Translations under genes and position numbers: made by a program
The notes under the pieces: generated by a model
What the model was told of the DNA's origin: nothing
The model's input: the letters and a program-made list of their open reading frames with translations, nothing else
Databases searched by the model: none
Part shown: positions 6,022-40,569 of the stretch, piece after piece
How the letters are laid out: every line of letters begins with the position of its first letter
Position numbering within the stretch: position 1 is the stretch's first letter
DNA from: Deltaproteobacteria bacterium
GTDB taxonomy: Bacteria; Desulfobacterota; BSN033; UBA1163
Assembly (NCBI GenBank): GCA_037444165.1
Contig: JBBIMX010000004.1
Location: 19 to 64,018 of the forward strand
Direction of reading: 5' to 3'
DNA: 64,000 bases

Positions 6022-7188
6022 TTAAAATTCGATTTTTTTGAGTCGTTCAATGGCTTCCCTCAATCTCGATTCATCTACCGTAAGGGCCATTCGAATATAC
6101 CCTTCCCCAGCCTCTCCAAATCCATTCCCAGGAGTGACCACGATTCCTGCTTTTTCAAGAAGCAAGCTTGAAAATTGGGCTGAGCTATATCCCTTTGGGA
6201 TCGGAACCCATAGGTAGAAGGTGGCCTTAGGGATTTCTACTTCCAATCCAATCTCTCTAAGCCCTCCAACCATCAGGTCTCTTCGTCTTTGATAAATTTG
6301 GGTCGTTTCAGGGATGGGAGTATCGAAGTGGGTGAGGGCCAGAACGCCTGCCTCCTGGATCGCCTGAAAGAGTCCAGAATCGATATTGGTCTTTACTCTT
6401 CCCAGCCCAGCGATGATTTGAGCATTTCCAACGGCAAAACCAATTCTCCAGCCCGTCATATTGAAGGTTTTTGATAGGCTATGAAATTCAATTCCTAATT
6501 CCTTTGCCCCTTCAACCTCAAAAAAGCTTAGAGGACGATATCCATCAAAAGCCAATTCAGAATAGGCAGCATCATGACACACAATGACCTGGTATCGGCG
6601 TGCGAAGGTGACCACCTCTTCAAAGAAGGCCCTCTCGGCAATCGCTGAGGTGGGATTGTTGGGATAGTTAATGAAAAGAAGCTTTGTTTTCTCTGCTACC
6701 TCTTTTGGAACGTCTGAAAGTTTCGGAAGAAAGCCGTTCTCTTTGAGAAGGGGGAGAAAGTAAGGGATTCCCCCTGCAAAGAGAGTAGAAACCCGATAGA
6801 CCGGATATCCCGGGCTGGGAACAAGGACATAATCCCCTGGATTGACAAAAGCCAGTGGAATATGGGCAATCCCTTCTTTGGATCCGATGAGCGTCAGAAT
6901 TTCGGTCTCGGGATCAAAGGTGAGATGAAACCTCTTCTCGAACCATTGGGCTACGGCTCTCCGAAATTCAATCATTCCCTCGTAGGAAGGATAGCGATGA
7001 TTCTTCGGATCTTCAGAAGCTTTTTTGAGTTGGTCGATGATGGGTTTGGGAGTGGGAAGATCGGGGTCGCCCACTCCGAGATCAATAAGGTCCACTCCCT
7101 TTTTTTTCATCTCGGCTTTCTTCTTATCGATTTCGGCAAAGAGATAGGGAGGAATTTGATGAATTCGCTCTGCATATTCAATTTTCAT
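6022..7188 (-). CDS. dapL: LL-diaminopimelate aminotransferase-like class I aminotransferase
   Basis: The N-terminus (YLFAEIDKKKAEMKKKGVDLIDLGVGDPDLPTP) is DapL-like. The PLP-lysine region (SLSKTFNMTGWRIG) is present. Length is about 388 aa. Confidence 0.65.
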   Translation of the reverse strand: MKIEYAERIHQIPPYLFAEIDKKKAEMKKKGVDLIDLGVGDPDLPTPKPIIDQLKKASEDPKNHRYPSYEGMIEFRRAVAQWFEKRFHLTFDPETEILTLIGSKEGIAHIPLAFVNPGDYVLVPSPGYPVYRVSTLFAGGIPYFLPLLKENGFLPKLSDVPKEVAEKTKLLFINYPNNPTSAIAERAFFEEVVTFARRYQVIVCHDAAYSELAFDGYRPLSFFEVEGAKELGIEFHSLSKTFNMTGWRIGFAVGNAQIIAGLGRVKTNIDSGLFQAIQEAGVLALTHFDTPIPETTQIYQRRRDLMVGGLREIGLEVEIPKATFYLWVPIPKGYSSAQFSSLLLEKAGIVVTPGNGFGEAGEGYIRMALTVDESRLREAIERLKKIEF

Positions 7189-7405
7189 CTCTCTTCCTTT
7201 CTTTAATTTTTAATCTCTTTCGATCCCTCACCCTTCTCCCCATCCCGTGGGAGAGAGGATCGAGTAGAATTAACCCTAAAATGTTTATCGAGAATATATC
7301 TTATGGGTTTTTAGGCAGAAATTCAAGGGAAACCATTTTACTCAATACCCCTCTCGGGCTTATTCCCCATCTGAGTGAGGGGTTACCAAGAGAGATATGT
7401 TTATA

Positions 7406-7434
7406 TTGACATCATTCCTTCTTCCTATCATAAT
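7406..7434 (+). promoter_or_regulatory. Sigma70-type promoter: TTGACA at 7406-7411, a 17 nt spacer, and CATAAT at 7429-7434
   Basis: A consensus -35 hexamer with optimal spacing to a near-consensus -10 hexamer lies 28 nt upstream of the 7463 start. Confidence 0.5.
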
Positions 7435-7462
7435 TTAGAAGCCATTCTGTAAAAATGATGGT

Positions 7463-9001
7463 ATGAAAAAGAGAGCTTTTCTAATCCCTTTTTTAATCCC
7501 TTCGATCTTTTTTCTCTTTTTTGGATGTGCCGGAAAGGAGAAAGAGATCAAAACCATAAAAGGAGATCCTGAACTCCTTTACAAGCAGGGTTTGGTTCAG
7601 TTCAATAAAAGAAATTACACCGAGGCCTTAAAAATATTCGAGCAAATCAAATCGACCTTTCCGGACAGTCCCCCCTACAGCCTCTGGGCTGAATTAAAGA
7701 TCGGAGACTGTCATTTCTTTAAAGAGGAATATGTAGAAGCGATAGCGGCCTATGAAGAATTTAAGAAGGCTCACCCGACTCATGAGGAGATTCCTTACGT
7801 CTATTATCAAATCGGAATGGCCTACTTTCTTCAAATGCGAAGCGAAGATCGGGATCAGACAAACACCCGAAAGGCCCTCTCTACTTTTGAATATCTCATC
7901 CATAATTTCCCGCCAAGCCTCTTTACCGAGAAGGCCCAGGAGAAGGTAAGGGTCTGCAGAAGGCAACTGGCCGATCATGAATTCTATATCGGGAACTTCT
8001 ACTATAAAGAACGCAAATATCAAGCCGCCGCAGCACGATTTGAGGGATTGCTCGAAAAGTTTCCAGAAAAAGACGGACAGGATAGGACGCTCTATCTCTT
8101 AGGGAAATGTTATCTTGAACTTCATCAACCGGAGAAAGCCAGGGAGGCTTTTCAGAAGATTGTTGAGGGATACCCGAAGAGTGCCTATTTCAAAGAAGCT
8201 AAAGCGATTCTGGATCAGGGAGTTCAAGAGAGGAAGCCTTCTCCAAGAACTAAGTCCATAGACCCCAAACAGAGGGTGGAGGAAAGCAAGGGACCTTTCC
8301 TCGTCCGATTTGAAGAGGAAGGAAGAAGACTCCTCTCCTTTCGAGAGGAAAGGCATGATCGATCTCCTCAAAGCCCCCCTGTGGAGGGGGAGTTAAAACC
8401 AGAAGAAGAGAAGAGGGCGCTCCTTCTGTCCAAGACTTCGGTTGAAAGAGAAGAAAGGAAATCTCAAGGAAACCCATTCATGGATATGGAGGCTCCGAAG
8501 AGAGAAGAACCTATAAGAGAGAAAAAAGAAGAGAAATCTCCAAGAGAAAAGGTCTTAAGAGAGACAGAAAGAGTGGAGGCTCGGGATTTTGAATACCCCA
8601 TCGATATTACTTCTGATAGGGTGGAGGGCTATTTAAAAGAAAATCTAATCATCTTTAAAGGGAATGTCATCGCCCGGCAAAAAGAGATAGTCCTCTACTG
8701 TGATGCTCTGGAGGCAATCCTTGGAGAGGATGGAAAGGGCATCGAAAGGGTGATTGCAAGTGGAAATGTTAAGATCCAGCAAGGGGCTCGTGTAGCCAGT
8801 AGTGAAAAAGCAATATTCTATAATCGTGAGCAAAAGATCATCCTCACAGGGAATCCTAAAATCTCCGAGGATGAGAATCTGGTCTCTGGAGAAGAAATTC
8901 TTGTTGACCTTGAAAAGAATCGAGTGGAGGTAAAGGGGGGATCAGATAGGAGAGGGAAGGTAAAGGTCATTCCAAAAGAGGAATCAGAAAAAACCAGATG
9001 A
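7463..9001 (+). CDS. BamD-like TPR lipoprotein fused through an E/K/R-rich linker to a C-terminal LptA/OstA-like domain
   Basis: A lipobox (FFLFFGCAG) is followed by BamD/YfiO-like TPR repeats and then a low-complexity linker of about 130 aa. The C-terminal 125 aa match the OstA_N/LptA beta-jellyroll (ITSDRVEGY...GNVIARQ...ASGNVKIQQG...ILTGNPKI). Confidence 0.6.
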   Translation: MKKRAFLIPFLIPSIFFLFFGCAGKEKEIKTIKGDPELLYKQGLVQFNKRNYTEALKIFEQIKSTFPDSPPYSLWAELKIGDCHFFKEEYVEAIAAYEEFKKAHPTHEEIPYVYYQIGMAYFLQMRSEDRDQTNTRKALSTFEYLIHNFPPSLFTEKAQEKVRVCRRQLADHEFYIGNFYYKERKYQAAAARFEGLLEKFPEKDGQDRTLYLLGKCYLELHQPEKAREAFQKIVEGYPKSAYFKEAKAILDQGVQERKPSPRTKSIDPKQRVEESKGPFLVRFEEEGRRLLSFREERHDRSPQSPPVEGELKPEEEKRALLLSKTSVEREERKSQGNPFMDMEAPKREEPIREKKEEKSPREKVLRETERVEARDFEYPIDITSDRVEGYLKENLIIFKGNVIARQKEIVLYCDALEAILGEDGKGIERVIASGNVKIQQGARVASSEKAIFYNREQKIILTGNPKISEDENLVSGEEILVDLEKNRVEVKGGSDRRGKVKVIPKEESEKTR

Positions 9002-9073
9002 GGGGCGATTCAGGCTGTTTGACAAATTTAAAAAAATCTAATAATATAAATAACTTGTAACTTAAAAAAATTT

Positions 9074-10420
9074 ATGTTTGAAAACCTGTCTGCCAAATTA
9101 GACTCTATTTTTAAGAGATTAAGGGGCCATGGAAAATTAACGGAAGACAATATCCAAGAGGCCTTAAAGGAGGTCAGGATTGCTCTCCTTGAGGCCGATG
9201 TCCATTTTAAAATTGTCAAGGACTTCATCCAGTCGGTTCAGCAAAGGGCGATAGGTCAGGAAGTGATGGGGAGTCTTACCCCTGCCCAACAACTCATCAA
9301 GATCGTCAAGGAGGAATTGACCTCCCTGATGGGTGGTGAGGAACAGAAGATCAATCTTTCTGGAAGTCCACCCGTCCCCATTATGCTGGTAGGCCTTCAT
9401 GGCTCCGGAAAGACGACCACCGCGGCCAAACTTGCCCGATACTTTCAAGAAAGAAAGAGACGACCTTACCTCGTCCCTGCAGACGTTTACCGTCCAGCGG
9501 CCATCGAACAGCTTCAGAAATTAGGAAAAGAGTTGAGGGTTGATTTTTACCAACCCACCCCGGAGCAGAGTCCCCTGGAGATTTGTCTTAAAGCGAAAGA
9601 GATCGCTTTAAAGGGAGGGTATGACCTATTTTTGATTGATACCGCTGGAAGACTCCATATCGATGAAGCTCTCATGCTTGAGCTTCGAGAGATTAAATCT
9701 CATCTTCAGCCCAGAGAAGTTCTTTTAGTCGCAGATGCTATGACCGGACAGGATGCTGTCAATATCGCTAAGAGTTTTAATGAACGTTTAGGAATTGACG
9801 GAGTGATCCTTACCAAGATGGATGGAGATGCGCGGGGAGGAGCCGCCCTTTCCATTCGTGCGGTGACCCAAAAACCAATCAAGTTCATCGGGGTGGGAGA
9901 AAAGTTGGACGCCCTGGAGGTTTTCCATCCCGACCGGATGGCCTCAAGAATCTTAGGAATGGGCGATGTATTAAGTTTGATTGAGAAAGCAGAAGCCCTT
10001 TATGACGAAAAGAAAGCAAAAGAACTTGAGCGAAAGATTCGAAAGGATTCTTTTACCCTGGAGGATTTTCGGGATCAACTCCGTCAGGTTCGGAAGATGG
10101 GTTCCCTGGAGTCCATTCTGAGCATGATCCCTGGAATGTCAAAAAGGGTGAAAGGAATGGCAGACCTGGAATTGGATGAGAAAAAGTTGATCAGGGTCGA
10201 AGCGATCATTAACTCAATGACCCCTCAGGAACGGGCCAATGTCTCCATCCTCAATGGAAGCAGAAGGCTAAGAATTGCGAAAGGAAGTGGCACGACTGTT
10301 CAAGAAGTGAATCAACTCTTAAAACAATATCTTCAGGCCAAGAAGATGATGAAACGTTTTGCTCAACTGGAGAAGAAGAGGATCCGTGGTGGAAGAATGC
10401 CTTCCTTCTTAGGATCCTAA
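9074..10420 (+). CDS. ffh: Signal recognition particle protein Ffh
   Basis: An N domain, a G domain (GLHGSGKTTT, DTAGR, TKMDGD) and a methionine-rich M domain are all present. Confidence 0.95.
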   Translation: MFENLSAKLDSIFKRLRGHGKLTEDNIQEALKEVRIALLEADVHFKIVKDFIQSVQQRAIGQEVMGSLTPAQQLIKIVKEELTSLMGGEEQKINLSGSPPVPIMLVGLHGSGKTTTAAKLARYFQERKRRPYLVPADVYRPAAIEQLQKLGKELRVDFYQPTPEQSPLEICLKAKEIALKGGYDLFLIDTAGRLHIDEALMLELREIKSHLQPREVLLVADAMTGQDAVNIAKSFNERLGIDGVILTKMDGDARGGAALSIRAVTQKPIKFIGVGEKLDALEVFHPDRMASRILGMGDVLSLIEKAEALYDEKKAKELERKIRKDSFTLEDFRDQLRQVRKMGSLESILSMIPGMSKRVKGMADLELDEKKLIRVEAIINSMTPQERANVSILNGSRRLRIAKGSGTTVQEVNQLLKQYLQAKKMMKRFAQLEKKRIRGGRMPSFLGS

Positions 10421-14644: not shown

Positions 14645-15445
14645 TTGAAGAGGGGGAAAATCTCAATGGATGAAAGGATCATCACTCAGGCCATCATTGA
14701 TCGGTATTTTCAGAAGTTAAAAGAGAATCTTTCCGTGGATGTGGCTGTGGTTGGAGGGGGACCTTCTGGTCTGGTCTGTTCCTATTTCCTTTCCAAGAAT
14801 GGATACAAAGTGGCCCTTTTTGAAAGAAAGCTATCCATTGGAGGAGGAATGTGGGGAGGAGGAATGATGTTTAATGAGATCGTCGTTCAGGAGGAAGGAA
14901 AAAGGATTCTTGATGAGTTTGAGATTCGTTCTCGTCCTTACTGCGAAGGCTACTACACTGCCGATTCTATCGAAGCCATCTCGACCCTCTGTTCAAAAAC
15001 AATAAAGGCCGGGGTTAGCATCTTTAATCTAATCAGTGCTGAAGATCTTATTGTGCGAGAGAATCGAGTCAATGGTTTAGTTCTTAATTGGACAGCCGTG
15101 GAGATGGCCCACCTCCATGTAGATCCATTAACCATTCATTCTAAATTTGTTGTGGACGCAACGGGTCACGCCACCGAGGTCGTCGCCATTCTTCAGAGGA
15201 AGAACGATGTTCGTCTGTCCACCGAGACCGGGAAGATTGTGGGAGAGAGATCCCTATGGGCGGAGGCAGCCGAAAGGGATACTCTTCTCAATACAAGAGA
15301 AGTCTATCCAGGACTCTATGTAACAGGAATGGCCGCCAACGCCACGTTCGGTTCCTATCGGATGGGACCTGTCTTTGGAGGAATGCTTCTCTCAGGAGAA
15401 AAAGCAGCCTCTTTGATCACCCAGGAGTTAAAAAGATGGAAGTAA
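14645..15445 (+). CDS. thi4: Thiazole synthase, Thi4 family
   Basis: A GxGxxG FAD/NAD fold ([11 protein letters not shown]) and the [12 protein letters not shown] motif typical of Thi4/THI1 are present. The true start may be MDERI at 14666. Confidence 0.8.
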
Positions 15446-16770
15446 AGCGAATTCTCACCATTGCAGGATCCGATTCTGGAGGAGGGGCAGGGATTCAGGC
15501 AGATCTAAAGGCCATCACCCTTCTGGATGGTTACGGGATGAGTGTGGTGACCGCCCTTACAGCCCAGAATACCCTTGGCGTTCAGGCCATTCAAGAAATC
15601 TCTGCCTCTTTTGTGGCCAAACAGATCGATTCCGTTCTCTCTGATATCGGTGCAGATGCCATCAAGACAGGAATGCTTCCCAACCGTGAGATCATTGAGG
15701 TCGTGGCGAAAAAGATTAAACAGTATGGAATCGAAACCGTGGTAGTGGACCCGGTCATGGTCTCTAAAAATGGAGTCCCTCTCATTCGAAAAGACGCTCA
15801 GGAGGCCTTGATCAGAAGATTGATCCCTCTCTCTTTGATGGTGACACCCAATCTTTACGAGGCCTCCATCCTTACGGGACTAAAAGTGAATTCCATTGAC
15901 GGAATGCGAAAGGCAGCGGTTCGACTGTGGGAGCTTGGAGCCAAGAACGTCCTCATCAAAGGGGGGCACCTGAGAGGAATGGCTATTGATATTCTTTTTG
16001 ATGGAAATAATTATGCGGAGATTTCAGCTCCGAGGATAAAGACAAAGAATACCCATGGCACCGGCTGTACCCTTGCCTCCGCTATTGCTACCCTTTTAGC
16101 CAAGGGGGAATCTATCCCTGAAGCAGTGAGAAAGGCCAAGCTATTCATCAACCTTGCTATTCAAGCCGGTCTCCCTATTGGAAAGGGGAATGGTCCAACC
16201 AATCCTTCTGCTTACATCCTGAAAGAAATGGAACGCTATCCTGTTCTTCAAGAGTTAAAGAGAGCGATAAGGGTATTAAAAGAAAACCAGATCGGCCCTC
16301 TTATCCCAGAGGTCTCTTCCAATTTAGGTTACGCCCTTCCTTTTGCCGAAGGAATAGGGGATGTGGCTGCCTTTCCGGGAAGAATCATTCGAGTCGGAGA
16401 GACCATCGCTGTGCTCGGGGACCCGGAGTTTGGCGTCTCCCAACATGTGGCCCGAATCATTCTCACCGTGATGAAATGGAATCCAGAGTATTGCTCCGCC
16501 ATGAATATAAGATACTCTAAAGAAAATGTGGCAAGGCTCGAGGGAAAAGGGTTTACGGGAGGCCATTTTGAGAGAAGGCTCGAACCTAAAGAGATTAAAG
16601 CAACGGAGGGGTCATCTCTTGAATGGGGGGTTCAAGAGGTTCTGAAAAAGAAAAGAAGTGTCCCCGATTTTATCTACGATGAAGGAGAGGTAGGGAAAGA
16701 GCCAATGATTCGTATTTTAGGAAGAAACCCGATGGATGTGGTCAATAAGATTCTAAAGGCCTTCAAATAA
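15436..16770 (+). CDS. thiDN: Bifunctional ThiD-ThiN: hydroxymethylpyrimidine/phosphomethylpyrimidine kinase fused to a C-terminal ThiN-type thiamine-phosphate synthase domain
   Basis: The ATG at 15436 overlaps the thi4 stop. The N-terminus ([20 protein letters not shown]) matches ThiD. The C-terminal 170 aa match the ThiN domain. The first 60 codons of the ORF-track frame are rejected because they overlap thi4. Confidence 0.75.
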
Positions 16771-24475: not shown

Positions 24476-27445
24476 TCAAAATCTTAAGGGTTTTTGCCAG
24501 GCCTCTTTAAGATCATAAATATTAGTGTCAATGATCATTTCTCCTTTTAGACCGATCACCCGAAACCTCTCGGATTCGATTACCCTTCCAATCTCTCCAT
24601 AGATTACCTCTCCAAGAAGTTTTTCAAAGGCCGCTTTTTTATAGGGATCGATTGTGGCAATAAAACGGCTCTGAGACTCTGAAAAGAGGAGAAAATCATT
24701 CCGATTCACTCCCGACCGAGGAACCTTTCTTAAATCGATTTCCATCCCCAATCCCCCTGCAAAGGCCGTCTCAGCCAAGGCCACTCCTAATCCCCCATCT
24801 GAACAGTCATGACAGGAGTGAATGAGCCCCTGCTGGATTGCTTGAAAAACTCGTTGATAGAGAGTCTTAGCCCGATTGACATTGACCGTAGGCACCCGGT
24901 TTCCAATAAAGCCCTTTGAGGCAAAATATTCTGAACCTCCTAATTCCTCCAGGGTCTCACCAAGGATGTAGACCAAATCTCCTGGCTTTTTAGCATCCAT
25001 GGTGACTGCTTTTCGAACATCATTCATTTTTCCAAGGGCAGAAATGAGAACCGTTGGAGGGATAGAGATCTTAATTCCCCCTATCATCGCATCATTCTTC
25101 ATACTATCTTTACCTGAAATCAGGGGCATCCCAAAGCCTTTACAATACTCATAGAGGGCTTGATTGGCTCTGACAAGTTGAGCCAGTTTATATTCCCCGT
25201 CAGGGGTCTTTTCCGATTGAACAGGATCAGGCCAACAGAAATTATCGAGCCCGGCAATCCGATCGGGATCCCCTCCCACCGCCACATTGTTCCGAATGGC
25301 TTCATCGATGGCACAGGCCACCATATGGTAGGTGTCAATGTCGCTGTAGCGGGGACAGATCCCATTGGAGACCACGACCCCTTCCATGGATGTGAGAATA
25401 GGACGAATCACGGCCGCATCGCTGGGACCATCATTGAATCGTCCAGTCAAAGGCTTGATGACGACCCCTCCTTGAACCTCATGGTCATACTGACGAATGA
25501 TCGATTCTTTGCTTGCAATATTGAGTCGGGAGAGCATGGAGAGCAGGGTAAAGGTCAAATCCTCAGGTTCTGGAAAGTCGGGCTCAGGATGGGAGGGCCT
25601 CTTCCACCTGGCTCGGAGCTCCATTTTAGGAAGACCGTAATGGAAAAACTCCATGTCCAGATAAGCCACAGTCTTTCCCCGATAGAGGACGTGAAACTTT
25701 TTTGAATCCGTAAATTTTCCAAGAACCGTTGCCTCGACATCCATCTTTTTGGCCAGTTCAAGGAATTCATCAATCTTCTCAGGAGAGACAGCGAGTGTCA
25801 TTCTCTCCTGGGCCTCCGAAAGAAGGATCTCCCAGGGATCCAGACCCGGATACTTCAGAGGCGCTCTATCGAGGTGAAGTTCACACCCAATCTCCCGAGC
25901 CATCTCTCCTACCGAGGAGGAGAGTCCTCCTGCCCCGTTATCCGTGATCGACTGATAGAGACCTCGATCACGGGCAAGAAGCAAAAAATCGGTCATCTTC
26001 TTCTGTGTAATGGGGTCACCAATTTGAACGGCAGTAGCAGGAGAGTCTTCCCTCAACTCTTCAGAAGAGAAGGTAGCTCCATGGATTCCATCTTTTCCGA
26101 TTCGACCCCCGGTCATCACAATAAAATCTCCTGGTGAGGCTTTCTTCAGATGGGAAGGTTCTCCTAAAATCTCTCTCGGCATAATTCCTGCTGTTCCACA
26201 ATAGACCAAAGGCTTTCCAAGGTATCGGTCATCGAAGACGACCCCTCCATTGACGGTGGGAATTCCGCTCTTATTTCCTCCGTGTTCGACCCCTTCCCTC
26301 ACTCCCTCGTATACCCTTTTGGGATGAAAAAGGGGCGCAGGGACAGGCCCCTCATAGTAAGGGGAAGCAAAACAGAAGGTATCTACATTGAAAATCAGTT
26401 TTGCTCCCTTTCCTGTCCCAAACGGATCTCTGTTCACCCCTACAATCCCGGTCAGGGCTCCTCCATAAGGATCGAGAGCGCACGGGGTATTATGAGTCTC
26501 GACCTTAAAGACCAGGTTGTATTGGTCATTGAATTGAATAACCCCTGCATTGTCGTCAAAGACCGAGACACACCAATCCTTCTCTCCTAAGGAGAGACGA
26601 ATCTCTTCGGTCACCCTTCGAATATAGGTCTTAAAGAGACTGTCAATCACGAGACACTCTCCATCTTCATCCCAGTATTCGATCTTGGCATTGAAGATCT
26701 TATGCTTACAGTGTTCGGACCAGGTCTGGGCAATGGCCTCCAGTTCCACATCCGTAATCTTTTTTCCCAACCCCACCCGAGTTCGATGTTTGATCACTTT
26801 TGGATCGTTCAAATACTTCTGAATGGCCTTCATTTCTCTCAGATCCAGGGCCAAAAGACGTTTTTGGCTTAATTCCATTAAGGCTTCATCACTAAGTTCA
26901 AGATCTATCTCCTCAACCCTTCCTCCCCCCTCCATCACCACTTTCGGAACCTTCGGCTCAATCCTTCCTCTCCACTGATCTCGGCTCCAGACATCGAACC
27001 TCTGGATAAGGGGATTCCCCAAAAGGCCCACACAGATTCGTTCTACATCCTCCCGCCTGAAGTTTCCTTTCAGAAGATATTGAGTGGAGGTATAGACCTT
27101 CTCTTCGTCACTCAATCTTCTGCCAAGCCTCCACTCAATGGCCTCTTTGGCAGTCTTTCCCACATTATCTGTGACCCCGGGCTTAAAACTCACTTCCACC
27201 AGCCAATCAAAATCTCGAGCCAGCGATTCGTCAATTCGGTACTCTTGAATAATGGGGTCAAGAAAAGGATCCGAGGCGATCGTTTCTAACTCCTCTCGGG
27301 AGAGATCGATATCAAGAGTATAGACGGAAATCGTTTTGACCGATTCGATTGGAAGTCCAAGGTCGTTTTGAATTCTCCTTTTGACCTTCTCTCCCAAGGC
27401 ATCTCGAATCCCTTCTTTTAATCCGATCTCAATACGGTGAGGCAC
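24476..27445 (-). CDS. purL: Phosphoribosylformylglycinamidine synthase PurL fused to two N-terminal PurS-like domains (PurSL)
   Basis: Two PurS-like repeats occupy the N-terminal 160 aa. They are followed by the FGAM synthetase AIRS and AIRS_C domains (HNTPCALDPYGGALTG, ATP-grasp-like). Length is 989 aa. Confidence 0.8.
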   Translation of the reverse strand: MPHRIEIGLKEGIRDALGEKVKRRIQNDLGLPIESVKTISVYTLDIDLSREELETIASDPFLDPIIQEYRIDESLARDFDWLVEVSFKPGVTDNVGKTAKEAIEWRLGRRLSDEEKVYTSTQYLLKGNFRREDVERICVGLLGNPLIQRFDVWSRDQWRGRIEPKVPKVVMEGGGRVEEIDLELSDEALMELSQKRLLALDLREMKAIQKYLNDPKVIKHRTRVGLGKKITDVELEAIAQTWSEHCKHKIFNAKIEYWDEDGECLVIDSLFKTYIRRVTEEIRLSLGEKDWCVSVFDDNAGVIQFNDQYNLVFKVETHNTPCALDPYGGALTGIVGVNRDPFGTGKGAKLIFNVDTFCFASPYYEGPVPAPLFHPKRVYEGVREGVEHGGNKSGIPTVNGGVVFDDRYLGKPLVYCGTAGIMPREILGEPSHLKKASPGDFIVMTGGRIGKDGIHGATFSSEELREDSPATAVQIGDPITQKKMTDFLLLARDRGLYQSITDNGAGGLSSSVGEMAREIGCELHLDRAPLKYPGLDPWEILLSEAQERMTLAVSPEKIDEFLELAKKMDVEATVLGKFTDSKKFHVLYRGKTVAYLDMEFFHYGLPKMELRARWKRPSHPEPDFPEPEDLTFTLLSMLSRLNIASKESIIRQYDHEVQGGVVIKPLTGRFNDGPSDAAVIRPILTSMEGVVVSNGICPRYSDIDTYHMVACAIDEAIRNNVAVGGDPDRIAGLDNFCWPDPVQSEKTPDGEYKLAQLVRANQALYEYCKGFGMPLISGKDSMKNDAMIGGIKISIPPTVLISALGKMNDVRKAVTMDAKKPGDLVYILGETLEELGGSEYFASKGFIGNRVPTVNVNRAKTLYQRVFQAIQQGLIHSCHDCSDGGLGVALAETAFAGGLGMEIDLRKVPRSGVNRNDFLLFSESQSRFIATIDPYKKAAFEKLLGEVIYGEIGRVIESERFRVIGLKGEMIIDTNIYDLKEAWQKPLRF

Positions 27446-32851: not shown

Positions 32852-33544
32852 GTGATGATGATCTCCAAAGAAAAAATCTGTATCCTCATCCCTGCCTATA
32901 ATGCTCAGAACACGATTGGACCTGTCCTGGAGAAAGCCTGTTCCTTGGGGTTAGATACCCTTGTCGTCAACGATGGGTCCACGGATGGGACTTCAGCAAT
33001 AGTCCAAAGCTATGGGGTGAAGCTCTTGGAACATCCCAAGAATCTTGGAAAAGGGGCATCTCTTCGGACTGGATTTCAATATCTCCTTGAGAAGAATTAT
33101 GAGTTAGTCATTACGCTCGATGCGGATGGTCAACACGATCCCTTAGAAATTCCCCTCCTTCTTAAAGCCTTTGATCGGGCGGAACCTGATCTTCTCATTG
33201 GTTCGAGAGCTGCAGAATTCGGGCAGATGCCTTTTCTTCGCCGGTTCTGGAATCGATTGGGAGTGAGGGCAGTCAGTCGCCTCTGTCACGCCGATATTAC
33301 GGATAGTCAATCAGGATTTCGAGTGATGCGAACAGAGCTGTTACGAAGGATTTCTCTCACCACAAAGGGATTTGACACCGAATTGGAACTTTTGATCAAA
33401 GCTTGCAAAATGGGGTTTCGTGTGTTATCCATTCCTGTACATTCTCAAAAATTTAATGGCCCATTTCCCAGTCATTTTAAACCCGTCAAAGACACATGGT
33501 TGGTTTGTAAATTATTTCTCAGGAGTCTCTTTTGGAAGGCATAG
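32852..33544 (+). CDS. Family 2 glycosyltransferase (DPM1-like)
   Basis: The GT-A fold motifs ILIPAYNAQNTIG, VNDGSTDGT and a DAD-type DxD motif are present. Confidence 0.8.
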   Translation: MMMISKEKICILIPAYNAQNTIGPVLEKACSLGLDTLVVNDGSTDGTSAIVQSYGVKLLEHPKNLGKGASLRTGFQYLLEKNYELVITLDADGQHDPLEIPLLLKAFDRAEPDLLIGSRAAEFGQMPFLRRFWNRLGVRAVSRLCHADITDSQSGFRVMRTELLRRISLTTKGFDTELELLIKACKMGFRVLSIPVHSQKFNGPFPSHFKPVKDTWLVCKLFLRSLFWKA

Positions 33545-33549
33545 AATAA

Positions 33550-34947
33550 ATGGATATTTATCAAAAGGCTAAACACTATTCGATCGAAAAATTTACCGTC
33601 AGTGCCTTATCCCTTCTGTCCAATGCGTCAGAGGAGCATTTGATTCGATTGACCATTCTGGCCGAAAAGATTCCCCAGAAAGAATCCTATCGGGAAAAGA
33701 TTCGCTGGATTCGAACCCTCTTTGAAACCCATCATCCTGGATTGACCTTGGCTAAAAGAGTTCTCAGCCAAACCCATCCCCTTCATCGACATAAACTGAT
33801 CTCAAACTTCATCATCAATCAACTCCTCGTGGGAACGAATCAACGAAAAGCCTTTGCGGAAAAAAGCGGGTTCTACCCACCCGATGCCATGCTCCTCAGT
33901 CCCACGATGAGATGTAACCTCCGATGTTATGGTTGTTATGCAGGGTCCTATTCAAAGCAAGAGGATCTCCCCTTGGAGATTATTGATCGACTGATAGAAG
34001 AATGCAAAGGGATGGGAATCTATTTGGTTCTGATGACCGGAGGGGAACCCTTTCTGAGGGAAGACCTTTTTGATCTCTTCGAGAAGCATGGGGACTGTCT
34101 CTTCCAAATTTATACCAATGCCACTCTTATCGATGAGAGGATGATCGAACGATTGGTTTCTCTGGGAAACGTGGTTCCAGCGATCAGCCTCGAAGGGTTC
34201 CGAGAGGAGACCGATGAAAGAAGGGGAAAAGGGCGATTTGATCAAATCCTTAAGGTGATGGATGGGCTAAGGAGGGCCGGCCTCTTCTTCGCTGTCTCCA
34301 CCACTCAGACCTCGAAAAATACAGAGGTATTGGGCAGCGAGGCTTTCGTTGACTTTTTGATTGAGAAGGGATGCATCCTCCTCTGGAATTTTCATTATGT
34401 TCCCATTGGAAAGGACCCGGATCTCAGTTTGATGGCCACCCCGGAACAGAGACAGAAGATCAGGCAACGCTTTGCGTATTTTCGGGCGACTAAACCCATG
34501 CTCTTTGTGGACTTCTGGAATGATGGTTGTCTGACCGGGGGGTGTATCGCAGCTGGGAGAAAGTACTTCCACGTCAATGCAAGAGGGGATGTTGAACCCT
34601 GTGTGTTCTGTCATTTCGCCTCGGATAATATCAAAGAAACGACCCTTTTCGAAGCCCTCAACTCACCCCTCTTCAAAGAGATCCGTAAAAGACAGCCCTT
34701 CTCGGAGAACCTCTATCGTCCCTGTCTTTTGATTGATCATCCGGAACAAGGAAGAGAGATTGCCTTAAAGCATGCCCGATACTTCACCCACCCCCAAGCC
34801 GAACAATTCTTTACCGAATTCTCTCAGGCCATTGATGCCTACGCGAAACGGTATGGTGAGATTGCCGAGAGGGCTTGGCAAGAACAGAAACAACTGAAAA
34901 ACCAACAAAGGGGTCATGGCCAAAAGGTTGCGGGTAGACATGGATGA
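33550..34947 (+). CDS. Radical SAM enzyme with a SPASM/twitch-like C-terminal Fe-S domain and an N-terminal extension of about 100 aa
   Basis: A CxxxCxxC motif (CNLRCYGCYAG) is followed by GGEPF. The C-terminal cysteine cluster GGCIAAG...CVFCHF is SPASM-like. Confidence 0.7.
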   Translation: MDIYQKAKHYSIEKFTVSALSLLSNASEEHLIRLTILAEKIPQKESYREKIRWIRTLFETHHPGLTLAKRVLSQTHPLHRHKLISNFIINQLLVGTNQRKAFAEKSGFYPPDAMLLSPTMRCNLRCYGCYAGSYSKQEDLPLEIIDRLIEECKGMGIYLVLMTGGEPFLREDLFDLFEKHGDCLFQIYTNATLIDERMIERLVSLGNVVPAISLEGFREETDERRGKGRFDQILKVMDGLRRAGLFFAVSTTQTSKNTEVLGSEAFVDFLIEKGCILLWNFHYVPIGKDPDLSLMATPEQRQKIRQRFAYFRATKPMLFVDFWNDGCLTGGCIAAGRKYFHVNARGDVEPCVFCHFASDNIKETTLFEALNSPLFKEIRKRQPFSENLYRPCLLIDHPEQGREIALKHARYFTHPQAEQFFTEFSQAIDAYAKRYGEIAERAWQEQKQLKNQQRGHGQKVAGRHG

Positions 34948-36044
34948 AAGTTACCTTTCCTCATCTTGGCACCATGCATATCTTCTGCAAGGCCATTGCA
35001 GAGACCTCCCACATCCCTTATGTCGTTCCTCCTGAGACCAGTCGCAGAACCCTTACCTTAGGCGTTCAACATTCAAACGAATGTATCTGTCTTCCTTTTA
35101 AAATCATCCTGGGGAATTTCATCGAGGCCCTGGAACGGGGGGCAGATACGATTGTCATGGTTGGAAGTGGTCCTCCCTGTCGACTGGGACTCTATGATCT
35201 GGTTCACAAAGTCATTCTCGAAGACCTTGGGCTTCCTTTTCGATGGCTGACGATCCCTCCTCGATTGACCTGGCAGGCCTTCTGGAAAAACTATGAAGAG
35301 ACAAAGGAGCTCAAAAAAGAGTTGACCTGGAAAAATATTCTTCTTTTCCCTTATGGACTCTATATGGGATGGAAGAAGATGATGGCCTGTGAGACCCTCG
35401 AGAAGCTGGCGATGAAGGTCAGGCCAAAAGAGATCCGAAAGGGAGAGACTCAGAAAAGATTAAAGAAGGCCCTCGATTGGGTGGATAAAGCTCAAACGCC
35501 AAAAAAAGTGGAGGAAGCCCTGAAGGGGGGAGAAAAACTCCTTCTAAACACGGAACAGGATCCTTCTCGAGCCGTTCTTAAAATTGCCATCGTAGGGGAA
35601 CTCTATACGGTGATGGATCCCCATATCAATCGAGGAGTCGAACAGAAATTAGGAGAATTGGGAGCAGAGGTCACCCGTTCTTCCTGGTTTTCCACCCATA
35701 TCCTCAGAAGTCTGAGAAAAAATAAAGCCAATCGACTCTCGGAGAGGATTCAGTTCCTCGAGGCTTCAAAGCTTTATCTGGGTTATGACGTGGGAGCGGA
35801 GTGTAATGTCTCGATAGGAGAAGCGATCTTAAGATCCAGAGAGGGGTATGATGGGGTCGTCCATCTCATGCCCTTTGCCTGTATGCCTGAGACTACCGCT
35901 TCCGGGATTTTAACCCGGGTGGGGAAGGATTGGAACATCCCCATCCTGACCCTTCTTCTGGATGAACAGGAAATCGAGGGCCGGATTCAAACTCTCCTTG
36001 AGGCCTTTGTGGAGATGTTGCAGTGGAAGAGAAAGGGGTCATAG
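34944..36044 (+). CDS. 2-hydroxyacyl-CoA dehydratase-like / activase-associated protein (DUF2229-type domain)
   Basis: The conserved cysteines (ECICLPF, GPPCRLG) resemble the C-terminal modules of fused CoA-substrate-specific enzyme activase proteins. The start overlaps the upstream stop as ATGA. Confidence 0.45.
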   Translation: MKVTFPHLGTMHIFCKAIAETSHIPYVVPPETSRRTLTLGVQHSNECICLPFKIILGNFIEALERGADTIVMVGSGPPCRLGLYDLVHKVILEDLGLPFRWLTIPPRLTWQAFWKNYEETKELKKELTWKNILLFPYGLYMGWKKMMACETLEKLAMKVRPKEIRKGETQKRLKKALDWVDKAQTPKKVEEALKGGEKLLLNTEQDPSRAVLKIAIVGELYTVMDPHINRGVEQKLGELGAEVTRSSWFSTHILRSLRKNKANRLSERIQFLEASKLYLGYDVGAECNVSIGEAILRSREGYDGVVHLMPFACMPETTASGILTRVGKDWNIPILTLLLDEQEIEGRIQTLLEAFVEMLQWKRKGS

Positions 36045-37042
36045 GAATTCCAAGGGCATTGATGTTTTATCGATATTTCCCCCTCTGGAGGAGTTTCTTC
36101 GAGGAGTTGGGTTGGAAGGTCCTCACCTCGGAGGAGTTAGGGAAAAGGGGAAGGCTTATCTATTTTGAGGACAGTTGCCTTCCCATGAAACTTTTAGTCA
36201 CCCATTCCCTCTCTTTAAAGGAAAGGGTCGACTTCCTATTCATTCCCCGCTTGGTCAGCCTCGATCGAGATTATATCATGTGCCCTAAGTTTCGAGGGGC
36301 TCCAGACATTGCTCGATTAGCCATGGAGGGATCCCCTCCAATACTGGATGAAACCATCGATGGACGAACGAAAGGATTTTCCTGGGAGGACGCCTTTTTA
36401 AGGATTGGAAAGAGATTGGGGGCTCAAAGAAAGGACATTCAAAAGGCTATCAAGAAGGCCTGGACTTTTTATTTCAATTTCATGAAGGGATGGGAAGAAC
36501 GGATCAATACCCTTCCTTTGAATCAACTTTGGGAATTTGAAATCCCTCCCGAGACCTCACAAAGAAAGGAGGAGCAATCCTATCGCGTAGCCTTAATAGG
36601 ACATCCTTACAATCTTTATGATAGGGATATCAGTAAAGATCTCCTCTCCTTTATTCGAAAGCTTGGGATGAGAATCACCACCTCGGATTCCCTTTCAAAA
36701 AAAGAGGTGGAGCAGGAGGTCTCAGGTCTTTCAAAAGAGATCTACTGGTCCTCAGGAAGAGAGATAGTCGGCTCTCTGTTTCACTTTCTCTCCAGCTCCC
36801 TTGATGGGGTGATTTTTCTTACCTCTTTCAAATGCGGGATCGATGCCCTCCTTCAGGAATTTGTCAAAAGAAGATTAAAGTGGATGGGAGAAAGCAAGAA
36901 GCCTCTCCTCATCCTCACCCTCGATGAGCATTCAGGAAGGGAGGGGTTGATGACACGGCTTGAAGCCTTCAGGGATGTGTTGGAACAAAAGAAGATTCAA
37001 AATCCGATCCATGAGGGTCAAAACCCTCTCACGGATGGTTAA
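36023..37042 (+). CDS. 2-hydroxyglutaryl-CoA dehydratase D-component-like protein (HGD-D family)
   Basis: The N-terminus (IGIPRALMFYRYFPLWRSFFEELGWKVLTS) is the HGD-D hallmark. It has a translationally coupled overlap with the upstream gene. Confidence 0.55.
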   Translation: MEEKGVIGIPRALMFYRYFPLWRSFFEELGWKVLTSEELGKRGRLIYFEDSCLPMKLLVTHSLSLKERVDFLFIPRLVSLDRDYIMCPKFRGAPDIARLAMEGSPPILDETIDGRTKGFSWEDAFLRIGKRLGAQRKDIQKAIKKAWTFYFNFMKGWEERINTLPLNQLWEFEIPPETSQRKEEQSYRVALIGHPYNLYDRDISKDLLSFIRKLGMRITTSDSLSKKEVEQEVSGLSKEIYWSSGREIVGSLFHFLSSSLDGVIFLTSFKCGIDALLQEFVKRRLKWMGESKKPLLILTLDEHSGREGLMTRLEAFRDVLEQKKIQNPIHEGQNPLTDG

Positions 37043-37044
37043 CG

Positions 37045-37986
37045 ATGGGACTTTATTTAGGAATTGATGTAGGGTCGATCACCACAAAAATGGCCGTCCT
37101 CAATGAGCAGGATGAGGTTTTAGCCCATGTCTATCTTCGAAACAATGGCCGACCCCTTGAAGCGATAAAGAAGGGACTCGAGCAGATTGAGTCTCAACTG
37201 GGAGTCCTTTCAGGGGTGGAGGGGGTGGCCACCACTGGCAGTGCTCGACATCTTGCAGCCTATCTGATCGGGGCCGATCTGATCAAGAATGAAATTACCG
37301 CCCATGCCATCGCTGTGATTGAATCTTTTCCAGAAGCCAAAACGATCATGGAGATTGGAGGACAGGATTCGAAGGTCATCCTCTTGAGGGAAGGGGTGGT
37401 GGTTGACTTTGCAATGAATACGGTCTGCGCGGCAGGGACAGGTTCGTTCCTGGATCAACAGGCCTCCCGGTTAGGAATTTCTATCGAAGAATTTGGCCGT
37501 TTAGCTCTTCGGGCAAAACACCCTGTCCGGATTGCAGGGCGATGTACGGTCTTTGCGGAAACCGATATGATTCACAAACAGCAGATCGGCCATGCGATGG
37601 AGGATATCCTCGCAGGACTGTGTGACTCTCTGGTGAAGAACTATTTGAATAATGTGTGTCGAGGAAAGGAGATCCTCCCTCCTGTGGTCTTTCAGGGAGG
37701 GGTAGCGGCGAATCCCGGGATACGCCAAGCCCTTGAGAAAGAACTGGGATTTGAACTGATCCTTCCAGAGTATTATGGGGTCATGGGAGCCATTGGAGCG
37801 GCCAAGCTCGTCAAACGGAGCAAACCCCAAAAGACACGATTCAAAGGATTTGAATGGTCTCGAAAACCCTGTCAAACTCGGGGCTTTGAATGTAACGAAT
37901 GCGGAAATCAGTGCGAGGTCATCCAACTCTGGGTGGACGATGAAGTGGTCGCCTCCTGGGGCGATCTCTGTGAGAGATATCGATGA
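37045..37986 (+). CDS. CoA-substrate-specific enzyme activase (BadF/BadG/BcrA/BcrD ATPase family, HgdC-like)
   Basis: The ASKHA fold N-terminus (LGIDVGSITTKMAV) and the AMNTVCAAGTGSFLD motif, with the cluster-bridging Cys, are present. The C-terminus is Cys-rich. Confidence 0.75.
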   Translation: MGLYLGIDVGSITTKMAVLNEQDEVLAHVYLRNNGRPLEAIKKGLEQIESQLGVLSGVEGVATTGSARHLAAYLIGADLIKNEITAHAIAVIESFPEAKTIMEIGGQDSKVILLREGVVVDFAMNTVCAAGTGSFLDQQASRLGISIEEFGRLALRAKHPVRIAGRCTVFAETDMIHKQQIGHAMEDILAGLCDSLVKNYLNNVCRGKEILPPVVFQGGVAANPGIRQALEKELGFELILPEYYGVMGAIGAAKLVKRSKPQKTRFKGFEWSRKPCQTRGFECNECGNQCEVIQLWVDDEVVASWGDLCERYR

Positions 37987-39353
37987 AGATTCTGATGATT
38001 AATCCCGCGCCCATCGGAACATTGAAAGCAACGGGTGTGCTCTTTCCACCCCTTGGTCTTCTTTACGTCGCTGCCGTTGCTGAAAAAGAAGGCCATGAGG
38101 TGGAGGTCGTGGATCTGGCTCTTCAAAAGAAGGGAGAAAAGATTGATTTTAAAAGGTATGAGATTGTAGGAATCTCTACGGACACGACCCGGCATCGCCA
38201 GGCTCTCCAATTGGCTAAGAGGGCGAAAAGAGAAGGCTGCACGGTAATCATGGGAGGCCCTCACCCGACCTATGTGGACAAAGAGATTCTCTCCACCGAA
38301 ATGGTCGATTTTATTGTTCGAGGAGAGGGAGAAGTCACTTTCTCGGAATTGATTTCAACTTTAAATCGGGAAAAGGGCAAGTTGGATTCCGTACAGGGGA
38401 TCAGTTTTTTATCCAAAGGCGAAATCCTTCGAACCCCCAGCCGCCCCTTTATTGAGAATCTCGATGAACTCCCCTTCCCTGCCAGGCATCTGGTTCCGAT
38501 GGAGAAGTACCGGCGAACAAAAATGGGAGACCGGGAGGTCACTCCTATCCTGACCAGTCGGGGGTGTCCATTTCAGTGCACCTTTTGTGCCTCATCCCAT
38601 TTTTTTGGAACGAAGGTCAGGCTTCGGAGTCCTGCATCGGTATTAAAGGAGCTCGAAGAACTCTATCATCGATACTCCTTTCAGGCCGTTGCCTTTGTGG
38701 ATGATACCTTCACTCTCTTTCCGGATAGGGTGATCGAAATTGGTAAAGGAATTCTGGAAAGAGGGATGAACCTCTGGTGGTGGTGTCTTTCGAGAGCGGA
38801 CCTTCTCATTCGAAACGAAGAGATGATTCAATGGATGGTTCGGTCAGGGGCGAAATCGGTCTTCATTGGAGTTGAGTCGGCCAATCCAAAGACCCTTGAG
38901 AGTCTGAAAAAAAGGATCGATCGAAACACCACGACTCGGGCTGTTGAAATGCTGAAACGATATGGCCTCGAGATCCATGCCTCTTATATCTTAGGCGGAC
39001 TCGATGAGACGGCTCGGGCAATTCATGAAACGATCCGATTGGCAAAAGAACTGGACACGAATGTGGCCCAATTTTCCATCCTTACCCCCTATCCAGGGAC
39101 CCTCCTCTATGAGCAGTTGAAGGATCGGATCTTCAGGTGGAGAGCTCCATGGTCATTTTTCGACATGCAACATCTGGTCTTCAAACACGACCATCTCTCC
39201 TTCATTCGGATGGAATGGCTTTTGATGAAGGCTCATCTTCTCTACTATCTGCGATCAAAGAAAGGGATTCGTGATCTCTGGCATCATATTAAAAAACACC
39301 GGATTACCCTTCGAACCTTCTTTCAATTTCTTAAAGAATACTTCTGGGGATAA
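37983..39353 (+). CDS. Cobalamin-binding (class B) radical SAM enzyme, paralog 1
   Basis: An N-terminal B12-binding Rossmann domain (MKILMINPAP...GHEVEVVDLA) is followed by a radical SAM core (RGCPFQCTFCAS). Confidence 0.8.
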   Translation: MKILMINPAPIGTLKATGVLFPPLGLLYVAAVAEKEGHEVEVVDLALQKKGEKIDFKRYEIVGISTDTTRHRQALQLAKRAKREGCTVIMGGPHPTYVDKEILSTEMVDFIVRGEGEVTFSELISTLNREKGKLDSVQGISFLSKGEILRTPSRPFIENLDELPFPARHLVPMEKYRRTKMGDREVTPILTSRGCPFQCTFCASSHFFGTKVRLRSPASVLKELEELYHRYSFQAVAFVDDTFTLFPDRVIEIGKGILERGMNLWWWCLSRADLLIRNEEMIQWMVRSGAKSVFIGVESANPKTLESLKKRIDRNTTTRAVEMLKRYGLEIHASYILGGLDETARAIHETIRLAKELDTNVAQFSILTPYPGTLLYEQLKDRIFRWRAPWSFFDMQHLVFKHDHLSFIRMEWLLMKAHLLYYLRSKKGIRDLWHHIKKHRITLRTFFQFLKEYFWG

Positions 39354-39355
39354 AG

Positions 39356-40270
39356 ATGGAGAATCGAGATCGTCTCTCTACCTACCGATTTCTCTCCCTC
39401 TTTCTCTTCCAATTCTTCTCTACCCTTATCCCCCGTTCCATGCAGAAGTTCTTCAGTGTCGTCGTAGGAGATCTCTTCTATTTATTGATGCCCAAGACAA
39501 GGACTTCTGTTCGAAAGAATATCGAAGGGATCAGCCAAGGAAGATGGGCGAAAGGAAAGATTGAAACCTATACCCGTAAAACTTTTCAGAACTATGGACA
39601 GTATCTCTTAGATTATATGGTCATGCATCGACTCTCTCCTTCTCATAAAGACCGGTGGGTGGAAGAAGAGATTGGAGGTCACTATATGATAGAAGCCCTC
39701 CAGAGAGGAAAAGGGGTGATCTGTATCACTCCTCATCTTGGAAACTGGGAGCTGGGAGGACTCCTCTTTTCCTTTAAAGGAGGAAAACTCAATGTCCTTA
39801 CCCTGGACGAAGAAGATCGAGGAATTAAATCTTATCGTGAAGAGATGCGAAGAAGATGGGGGATTCGAAACATCTATATTCACCCCGGAGACGATTCTCC
39901 TCTGGCCACCCTCGAAGCGGTTCAAGCATTGAGGCGAAATGAGATTGTGGCCATGTTGGGAGATCGGATCGAAACTCAGAGGACGATGGAGTTGGATTTC
40001 TTTGGTAAGAAAACCCCTTTCCCCATTGGAGCAGCCTTGATGGCCATGACCACAGGGGCTGCGGTCCTCCCGGTCTTTGTCGTCATGGAAAGGAATCGAA
40101 AATATCGAGGGATCATCGAATCCCCTGTCTATTTTGATTCCTCTTCTCGAGAGGAACGCGAATCCATCCTGAGAAAAGGGATGGAAGAGATCGTGAAAAA
40201 ATTTGAATCCTATATCGAAAAATATCCTGATCAATGGTATAATTTTTATTCTTATTGGAACGATTCCTGA
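39356..40270 (+). CDS. LpxL/HtrB-family lysophospholipid (lipid A-type) acyltransferase
   Basis: The HX4D-type motif ITPHLGNWELGG is present, with an N-terminal TM anchor. It is in the LPLAT_LABLAT-like family. Confidence 0.75.
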   Translation: MENRDRLSTYRFLSLFLFQFFSTLIPRSMQKFFSVVVGDLFYLLMPKTRTSVRKNIEGISQGRWAKGKIETYTRKTFQNYGQYLLDYMVMHRLSPSHKDRWVEEEIGGHYMIEALQRGKGVICITPHLGNWELGGLLFSFKGGKLNVLTLDEEDRGIKSYREEMRRRWGIRNIYIHPGDDSPLATLEAVQALRRNEIVAMLGDRIETQRTMELDFFGKKTPFPIGAALMAMTTGAAVLPVFVVMERNRKYRGIIESPVYFDSSSREERESILRKGMEEIVKKFESYIEKYPDQWYNFYSYWNDS

Positions 40271-40565: not shown

Positions 40566-40569
40566 AGAG

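Follow-up and report, generated by a model that had tools for sequence, protein, structure and literature searches.

A BamD lipoprotein with a tethered LptA-type jellyroll in uncultured Deltaproteobacteria: a possible link between outer-membrane protein assembly and lipopolysaccharide transport

The gene and its parts

The gene described here occupies positions 7463 to 9001 on the + strand of the window, by which we mean the whole stretch of 64,000 nucleotides analysed (Deltaproteobacteria bacterium, assembly GCA_037444165.1, contig JBBIMX010000004.1, positions 19 to 64,018). It encodes a single polypeptide in which BamD, a subunit of the machinery for beta-barrel assembly (BAM), is joined by a long charged tether to a complete domain of the LptA type, i.e. 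a jellyroll of the lipopolysaccharide (LPS) transport (Lpt) bridge. Judged by homology and conservation, the product is a putative bifunctional outer-membrane lipoprotein made of BamD, a flexible tether and a constrained LptA paralogue. A preliminary description of the DNA had placed the open reading frame (ORF) at exactly these positions and on this strand, with 512 residues; according to the ORF list of the window, it contains no internal stops. The following features were assigned.

7463..9001, + strand: coding sequence of the BamD-linker-LptA lipoprotein, complete, with ATG start, 512 amino acids plus stop
7463..7528, + strand: lipoprotein signal peptide and lipobox up to Cys22 (LFFGC), read from the sequence
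7556..8227, + strand: BamD (YfiO) tetratricopeptide-repeat (TPR) domain, residues ~32-255, based on PF13525, TIGR03302, AlphaFold2 and Foldseek
8228..8587, + strand: disordered E/K/R/P-rich tether, residues ~256-375, free of Pfam matches and of low model confidence
8297..8335, + strand: linker motif M1 FLVRFEEEGRRLL, residues 279-291, family consensus aLVKFEEEgRQPV
8387..8431, + strand: linker motif M2 GELKPEEEKRALLLS, residues 309-323, family consensus vEvKPEEEKRiAALP
8588..8977, + strand: complete LptA-type beta-jellyroll ("beta-taco"), residues ~376-505, based on PF03968, TIGR03002, AlphaFold2 and Foldseek
7406..7434, + strand: candidate sigma-70-like promoter TTGACA-17-CATAAT, 29 bp 5' of the start codon, a consensus match only

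The N-terminus of the protein, MKKRAFLIPFLIPSIFFLFFGC-AGK, conforms to the lipoprotein pattern. The lipobox cysteine already pointed out in the preliminary description, Cys22, is invariant in all 121 family members; a lipobox-like pattern is present in at least 100 of these, and positions +2 to +4 after the cysteine read AGK, GGK or SGK. The promoter candidate agrees with the consensus at 11 of 12 positions and is the top site within positions 7100-9200.

Identity of the two halves

By sequence and fold, the N-terminal half is a genuine BamD, the lipoprotein of BAM that consists of TPRs, and its predicted lipid anchor would sit in the outer membrane's inner leaflet. PF13525 (YfiO) spans residues 36-228 (E=8.6e-41, 140 bits, cut-off 25) and the NCBIfam BamD model TIGR03302 residues 13-242 (225 bits, cut-off 81.4); the CpoB/YbgF model TIGR02795 gave 84 bits, which is under its cut-off of 90.1. 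Compared with the sequences of solved structures, this half retrieved BamD chains with E-values down to 2e-21. In an AlphaFold2 model of the whole protein, built from 71 homologues, residues 32-255 are all-helical with predicted local distance difference test (pLDDT) values above 90. A Foldseek search of the PDB with the model gave target-normalised template modelling (TM) scores of 0.78-0.92 to the BamD chains of BAM complexes, which share the five-TPR fold.

The residues C83 and C165 were considered as a fusion-specific cysteine pair of the BamD half and rejected, as C165 is frequent in BamD-only relatives. Likewise, the high-scoring "BamD-only" proteins P0125-P0128 proved to be fusions that had been truncated, and hence give no evidence for a separate, second BamD. 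In BamD-only representatives of other lineages (P0150, P0155 and P0159), a short E/K-rich tail is followed by an aromatic, hydrophobic C-terminus (…KKFLFF, …KKKWFVFF and …KKFILF, respectively), reminiscent of the beta-signal of outer-membrane proteins (OMPs).

The C-terminal half is of the LptA type. PF03968 (LptD_N/OstA), a domain common to LptA and LptD, matches residues 382-486 with 60-64 bits (cut-off 20.4); a barrel domain is absent from the fusion protein. The LptA equivalog model TIGR03002 scores 73.2 bits with the whole protein and 77.0 bits with the domain alone (cut-off 71.7), and the match covers model positions 3-138 of 142. For the same protein, the LptC model reached 15 bits and the LptD model NF002997 12.8 bits, compared with 77 for LptA. 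The last 153 residues retrieved LptA chains among the sequences of solved structures, with E-values down to 4e-5. AlphaFold2 modelled residues 376-493 as all-beta with pLDDT values of 80-94, and Foldseek aligned 134-141 columns, i.e. the entire jellyroll, to LptA/LptH (2r19, 2r1a, 4uu4) with TM scores of about 0.8. From PIDITSD through the C-terminal GG..R..P, the fused domain is collinear with the whole of mature standalone LptA; being internal to a lipoprotein, it lacks a signal peptide of its own. The preliminary description had read a BamD/YfiO-type TPR region and an OstA_N/LptA domain from motifs and had allowed that the latter might miss the LptA models. Both assignments stood, as the Pfam and NCBIfam models of either half score above their cut-offs, TIGR03002 included, and Foldseek returned the BamD and the LptA fold.

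Conservation of the fusion

A homologue search over 5.8 billion proteins yielded 624 clusters at E<=1e-5. All of the best 120 clusters carry PF13525 together with PF03968; these proteins have 485-666 residues, are 44-94% identical, and stem from Thermodesulfobacteriota, Deltaproteobacteria and Syntrophaceae metagenome-assembled genomes (MAGs). The databases name them either "LptA" (NCBI) or "BamD" (JGI), so that each name conceals half of the protein. When the window protein was looked up by its exact sequence, the database had no entry identical to it. All carriers seen are MAGs or metagenome contigs, with no cultured isolate among them; the hosts are uncultured anaerobes ("deltaproteobacteria", Thermodesulfobacteriota).

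A scan of the GTDB species representatives located 44 fusion loci, and in 42 of these our own hidden Markov models for the two domains find both in a single ORF. One exception (L035) is cut off by the end of the contig. In the other (L037; CAVOIK010000025.1, 10999-11014), the only locus of this kind, the BamD and LptA halves lie in different frames. This MAG was assembled from long reads, the stop falls within the repetitive linker and the frame resumes downstream, which most likely reflects an indel error rather than a gene that is truly split. Synteny is constant, with the order corC(-), dapL(-), fusion gene (+), ffh, rpsP, KH, rimM and trmD, and the fusion gene sits between dapL and ffh in all loci. 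The window itself is about 95% identical in nucleotide sequence to the locus of MAG CAZMWF01 ("uncultured Syntrophaceae bacterium"; L001). Compared with the three nearest relatives, the ratio of nonsynonymous to synonymous substitution rates (dN/dS) is 0.03-0.09 for BamD and 0.04-0.07 for the LptA domain; both domains are therefore under equally strong purifying selection.

These data also bear on the trivial explanation that adjacent bamD and lptA genes were merged by a frameshift or a lost stop during sequencing or assembly, a case that the preliminary description had put in the form of two genes separated by a frameshift. Only the locus with its halves in different frames speaks for it, and there the stop looks like an indel error. 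The single ORF recurs in 120 of 120 homologues and in 42 of 44 loci of independent genomes, the LptA part lacks a separate signal peptide, and a real lptA adjoins lptC and lptB elsewhere (see below). Frameshift or misassembly is effectively refuted by the single ORF conserved across independent assemblies, and we give an artefact practically no chance. The coupling of BamD and an LptA fold in one polypeptide, as first described, is thus genuine. The architecture had also been called uncommon, which is correct globally; within the clade, the fusion is the rule, as documented by the best 120 homologues and by 44 species-level genomes sharing the synteny.

The linker and its motifs

Between the domains lie 117-123 residues; residues ~256-375 have no Pfam match, and AlphaFold2 predicts residues 259-375 to be disordered, with pLDDT values of about 30. 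Glutamate (25), arginine (17), lysine (13), proline (12) and serine (10) dominate its composition (out of 116 residues). In the family, linker length varies between 90 and 269 residues with a median of 158, and glutamate, lysine and proline contribute 17.9%, 15.3% and 13.3%. The preliminary description had spoken of a low-complexity, charged linker of about 130 residues; charge and approximate length were right, but the segment is not merely of low complexity, since it contains conserved motifs.

The motifs M1 and M2 share the pattern phi-x-phi-K-[FP]-E-E-E-x-R. In M1, F283 is conserved in 110 and E286 in 120 of 121 proteins; in M2, the corresponding counts are 114 for E310, 112 for P313, 111 for E316 and 106 for R318. 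A loose version of the pattern occurs in one to three copies in 116 of the 121 proteins, some homologues having extra copies. The strict version was found 68 times in fusion linkers and not once in 649k residues of other ORFs of the fetched loci, which eliminated the idea that the motif is common to other proteins and could point to a partner. Compared with the three nearest relatives, dN/dS is 0.08-0.16 for M1, 0.17-0.30 for M2, and 0.33-0.49 for the linker; M1 in particular lies far under the value for the remaining linker. Intramolecular docking of the motifs on BamD or on the jellyroll was discarded, as AlphaFold2 assigns them a pLDDT of about 30 and docks them on neither domain; a partner of the motifs, if there is any, must therefore be another molecule.

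Free LptA and the fused paralogue

The preliminary description had proposed to look for separate lptA and lptC genes elsewhere in the genome. Both are present, together with lptB, in the MAG that is about 95% identical to the window, CAZMWF01. Another of its contigs (L046) carries pyrG, kdsD, lptC, lptA, lptB, rpoN, hpf, ptsN, hprK and rapZ. The assignments are supported by TIGR04409 for LptC (116 bits, cut-off 38), TIGR03002 for LptA (88 bits, cut-off 71.7; 188 residues, own signal peptide) and TIGR04406 for LptB (361 bits, cut-off 240). Because this close relative has the canonical kdsD-lptC-lptA-lptB-rpoN arrangement as well, the fused domain, 42% identical to the LptA of this MAG, does not replace LptA but is a further paralogue of it. 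When the free LptA served as query, 602 relatives were retrieved. The best 120 of these have 171-214 residues and signal peptides, none has a lipobox, and they contain Lpt-jellyroll Pfam domains only (PF03968, in some cases plus PF13100 or PF06835), the BamD domain being absent. The steps of divergence among the free LptAs (99%, 74-79%, ~60-70%) parallel those of the fusion family. The notion that the fused domain is the sole LptA of the cell was consequently abandoned for this lineage, given the lptC-lptA-lptB genes of the sister MAG and the 602 free LptAs in the clade. As a side observation, an lptA-lptB segment 93% identical in nucleotide sequence to L046 occurs at positions 1832-2452 of JAIMBU010000777.1 (L045), a contig of a "Gorillibacterium sp." MAG; binned as Firmicute, this contig is probably mis-binned.

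We compared 123 free LptAs column by column with fusions, of which 121 were close and 68 divergent. In the fused and the free family alike, the N-terminal edge strand reads P379-I-D-I-T-S-D-x-V-E388 and is invariant, apart from position 386, which is arginine or lysine in the former and threonine in the latter. The core motifs F398-G-N-V, A432-G-N-V, R443-A, L461-G and G476 are common to both as well. Sixteen positions tell the families apart, i.e. they are more than 85% conserved within each and different between them, and these cluster as charge reversals at the C-terminal edge. There, the fused family reads E478...E-K-N-R-V-E-V-K-G-G and the free one R478...D-E-E-R-S-V-V-E-G-G, with E instead of R at position 478, K-N instead of E-E at 485/486, and K instead of E at 491. 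Within the fused family, this edge is highly conserved (K491 93%, G492 and G493 100%, R497 99%). In LptA filaments, as seen in the crystal form 2R1A, neighbouring protomers are joined by pairing of a C-terminal with an N-terminal strand. The identical N-terminal and charge-reversed C-terminal edges therefore suggest that both paralogues can be supplied by a common upstream partner and differ in their downstream partners.

The LptA domain has exactly one cysteine in 120 of 121 proteins. Position 447 carries it in 115 of these and position 413 in the subclade of the window (Cys413, positions 8699-8701); the two are mutually exclusive. Two cysteines are found in the LptA domain of 16 divergent fusions. 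C447 looked like a striking fusion-only signature in a comparison with 4 free LptAs and was downgraded once 25% of the 123 free LptAs proved to have it; it is therefore enriched in fusions, not exclusive to them.

Wider distribution and variants

An exhaustive profile search of 1.84 billion representatives at 50% identity matched 693 proteins at E<=1e-30, and both domains were found in 29 of the best 150 of these. Besides the close family, there are fusions from Syntrophorhabdales (P0136 cluster) and short-linker forms with only ~20-35 residues between the domains (P0138, P0147, P0152 and P0154, from "Deltaproteobacteria bacterium" MAGs). A further form of 800-1135 residues has the order BamD-LptA-NTF2-like, with Cds6_C (PF24125) and DUF4440 domains; it comprises 25 clusters from Thermodesulfobacteriota MAGs, with the entries P0129, P0130, P0134, P0139 and P0300-P0319. 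One gene of this form (L049, 8001-10613, GCA_037481695.1) is flanked by ftsQAZ and by tolQ-tolR-tolA-tolB-pal-cpoB. The EEE motifs are absent from the divergent fusions. As to a single origin of all fused LptA domains, a simple neighbour-joining tree on identity distances gave no resolution (0 of 50 bootstraps).

Other genes of the window

Apart from the fusion gene, the ~40 larger ORFs of the 64-kb window that were scanned, the shorter ones being left unscanned, included no gene of the Lpt or Bam systems. At 39356..40270, a lipid A acyltransferase of the LpxL type is encoded. It belongs to a lipid-related cluster (32852-48095) that comprises a family-2 glycosyltransferase, the LpxL-type enzyme, an acyltransferase, a FabG-like reductase and a FabF-like ketoacyl synthase as well as five radical-SAM enzymes (four with B12-binding domains), two DUF2229 proteins and a BadF/BcrA-type ATPase. 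This cluster may reflect an unusual lipid A or membrane-lipid chemistry. Upstream of the fusion gene, a DUF3108 protein (2003-2974, + strand) is encoded between a GTPase/TGS gene and a TldD/PmbA-type peptidase gene. Two further domain fusions are encoded as well: a ThiD-ThiN fusion of 504 residues (15256-16770, + strand) and a PurS-PurL-type FGAM synthase fusion of 989 residues (24476-27445, - strand), which combines PurS, FGAR-AT linker and AIRS domains.

Possible function of the fusion

Gram-negative cells coordinate two essential assembly lines of the outer membrane, BAM for proteins and Lpt for LPS. The links between the two that are known from E. coli are indirect: LptD is a BAM substrate that folds there and requires dedicated helpers (bioRxiv 10.1101/2025.01.03.631273; PMC12644819), LptDE partly stays with BAM via BamB and BamD (bioRxiv 10.1101/2025.01.03.631273), and LptM is loaded onto LptD at BAM (PMC12644819; bioRxiv 10.1101/2025.01.03.631273). 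LptM and LptY, both lipoproteins of the outer membrane, stabilise the beta-taco of LptD and aid the connection of translocon and bridge (PMC12644819). In delta-proteobacteria, BamB, BamC and BamE are absent (PMC3359395).

The functions suggested in the preliminary description, a bridge towards the inner membrane or the binding of a lipid, are plausible, and the cell envelope may be organised in an unusual way, as it also supposed. We propose, with a probability of about 0.45, that the fusion is an Lpt bridge module tethered to the outer membrane which keeps LPS delivery beside BAM. The tethered jellyroll would stack head-to-tail with other Lpt jellyrolls as the module of the LPS bridge that is proximal to the outer membrane. 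Its N-terminal edge strand would accept LPS from free LptA or from LptC, and its diverged C-terminal edge would dock on another downstream partner, for which the jellyroll at the N-terminus of LptD is the most plausible candidate. The covalent tie to BamD would keep the ends of Lpt bridges next to BAM; LPS delivery, the initial linking of a new LptD, or both would be co-localised with OMP insertion and stoichiometrically tied to it. In the bridge orientation, the N-terminal edge of LptA faces the inner membrane, so that the chain would run back to its anchor in the outer membrane. For this reason a long leash would be needed, and the length of the tether would let the N-terminus of the jellyroll face the inner membrane while BamD remains at the outer membrane.

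Several points weigh against this proposal. The mechanism is deduced from homology and conservation only. AlphaFold2 docks neither the linker motifs nor the LptA domain on anything and predicts no interface. The variants with linkers of ~20-35 residues (P0138, P0152, P0154, P0147) favour a BAM-proximal role over that of a protomer in the middle of the periplasm, because a short linker holds the jellyroll close under BAM. The diverged C-terminal edge could equally mean that the domain has left the Lpt bridges altogether, and the co-occurrence with free LptA was seen in one genome only.

The short-linker variants, which put the domain directly beneath BamD, are also among the observations that suggest a somewhat unlikely alternative, namely an assembly aid specific for LptD. 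Here, the jellyroll would capture the nascent beta-taco of LptD at BAM by edge-to-edge beta-augmentation and hold or orient LptD while its 26-stranded barrel folds, thus acting outside the LPS conduit as an analogue of LptM or BepA. That E. coli LptD folds at BAM, partly stays on BamB/BamD and requires helpers would fit, as would the lack of BamB, BamC and BamE in delta-proteobacteria and the fact that the part diverged from free LptA is the C-terminal edge, which faces LptD in the bridge geometry. A mere holder of LptD, however, would not need the N-terminal edge, which is invariant and the same as in free LptA; moreover, the core that forms the groove is as strongly conserved as BamD, and a leash of 90-270 residues exceeds what a BAM-proximal clamp needs. 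The missing BamB, BamC and BamE could also be compensated by a general holder of hydrophobic cargo, as delta-proteobacteria have only BamA and BamD. In that case, the groove would bind unfolded OMP segments, lipoprotein acyl chains or other lipids, and the LptA ancestry would be incidental. Lineage-specific accessory modules of BAM are frequent, an example being the extended BAM of Bacteroidota (9n2d and 9hiv, found as fold matches), and some variants of the fusion add NTF2-like (Cds6_C/DUF4440) domains, a fold often linked to small hydrophobic ligands. We consider such a holder improbable, as the domain passes the cut-off of the LptA equivalog model, fits the LptC and LptD models far less well, retains the edge strand used for Lpt stacking, and gives no sign of an altered groove.

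A slim chance is likewise left to a regulator or decoy that caps free LptA or LptC at the outer membrane and titrates bridges according to the amount of BAM, no LPS being passed on. The edges would suit this role, since a terminator should combine the N-terminal edge of free LptA with an altered C-terminal one, and an excess of LptC is known to titrate bridges via LptA in E. coli (PMC12644819). For a pure decoy, however, conservation of the whole domain (dN/dS 0.04-0.07) is needless, and the high conservation of the C-terminal edge within the fused family points to a specific partner. An extension of the tethered-module proposal, which we regard as unlikely, is a bridge built as an ordered heteromer of LptC, free LptA, BamD-tethered LptA and LptD; the tethered paralogue would then be an obligatory adaptor next to the outer membrane, and the linker motifs would recruit a further partner. 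If this were true, LPS would reach the outer membrane solely at sites occupied by BAM, and the insertion of LPS and of outer-membrane proteins would be coordinated in a hard-wired manner.

The families of BamD and LptA are each well known; their tethered combination is undescribed in the literature searched. Full-text searches found no description of a BamD-LptA fusion, and a survey of delta-proteobacterial BamD does not mention it (Anwari et al. 2012, PMC3359395). In contrast to the indirect links of E. coli, a core BAM subunit is covalently joined here to a full Lpt bridge module while free LptA is retained, which offers a testable hypothesis for a spatial or stoichiometric coupling of BAM and Lpt. 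Read as a "Rosetta-stone" fusion, it would, if the bridge is such an ordered heteromer, predict a functional contact between BamD and Lpt where these proteins are separate. Fused and free LptA with their common N-terminal and different C-terminal edges constitute a natural example of subfunctionalised paralogues, and the fusion linkers supply a set of unexplained periplasmic short linear motifs.

Comparison with known systems

With BamD (YfiO; essential in BAM, structures from E. coli, Neisseria and Rhodothermus), the fusion has the lipobox cysteine and the five-TPR fold in common. In alpha-proteobacteria, BamD has a C-terminal extension of 60 residues and no more (PMC3359395). Classical BamD stops after the TPR domain at about 245 residues, whereas the fusion adds a tether of 120 residues and an LptA domain of 130 residues. 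With LptA (YhbN), which is soluble in the periplasm, it shares the complete beta-jellyroll and the N-terminal edge strand, and the clade's own LptA is ~41% identical; unlike LptA, the fused copy is tethered to an outer-membrane lipoprotein and encoded outside the lptC-lptA-lptB operon.

The jellyrolls of LptD and LptC belong to the same PF03968 fold family and are likewise permanently attached to a membrane component. However, LptD has its taco fused directly to the barrel of the same protein and locked by disulfides (PMC12644819), and the anchor of LptC is a transmembrane helix. The anchor of the fusion's jellyroll is a lipoprotein of a different machine, BAM, to which it is connected via a long flexible leash. 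LptM and LptY are, similarly to the role proposed for the fusion, outer-membrane lipoproteins that act at the outer-membrane end of the Lpt bridge. There is no kinship in sequence or fold, LptM being short and peptide-like and LptY lipocalin-like; unlike the fusion, they belong neither to the subunits of BAM nor to the Lpt jellyrolls.

Finally, the composition of the tether may resemble that of the Glu-Pro/Lys-Pro spacer of TonB. In contrast to the periplasm-spanning linkers of the TonB/TolA type, the tether of the fusion is anchored at the outer and not at the inner membrane, and it carries its own phi-x-phi-K-[FP]-E-E-E-x-R motifs, which were seen solely in fusions.

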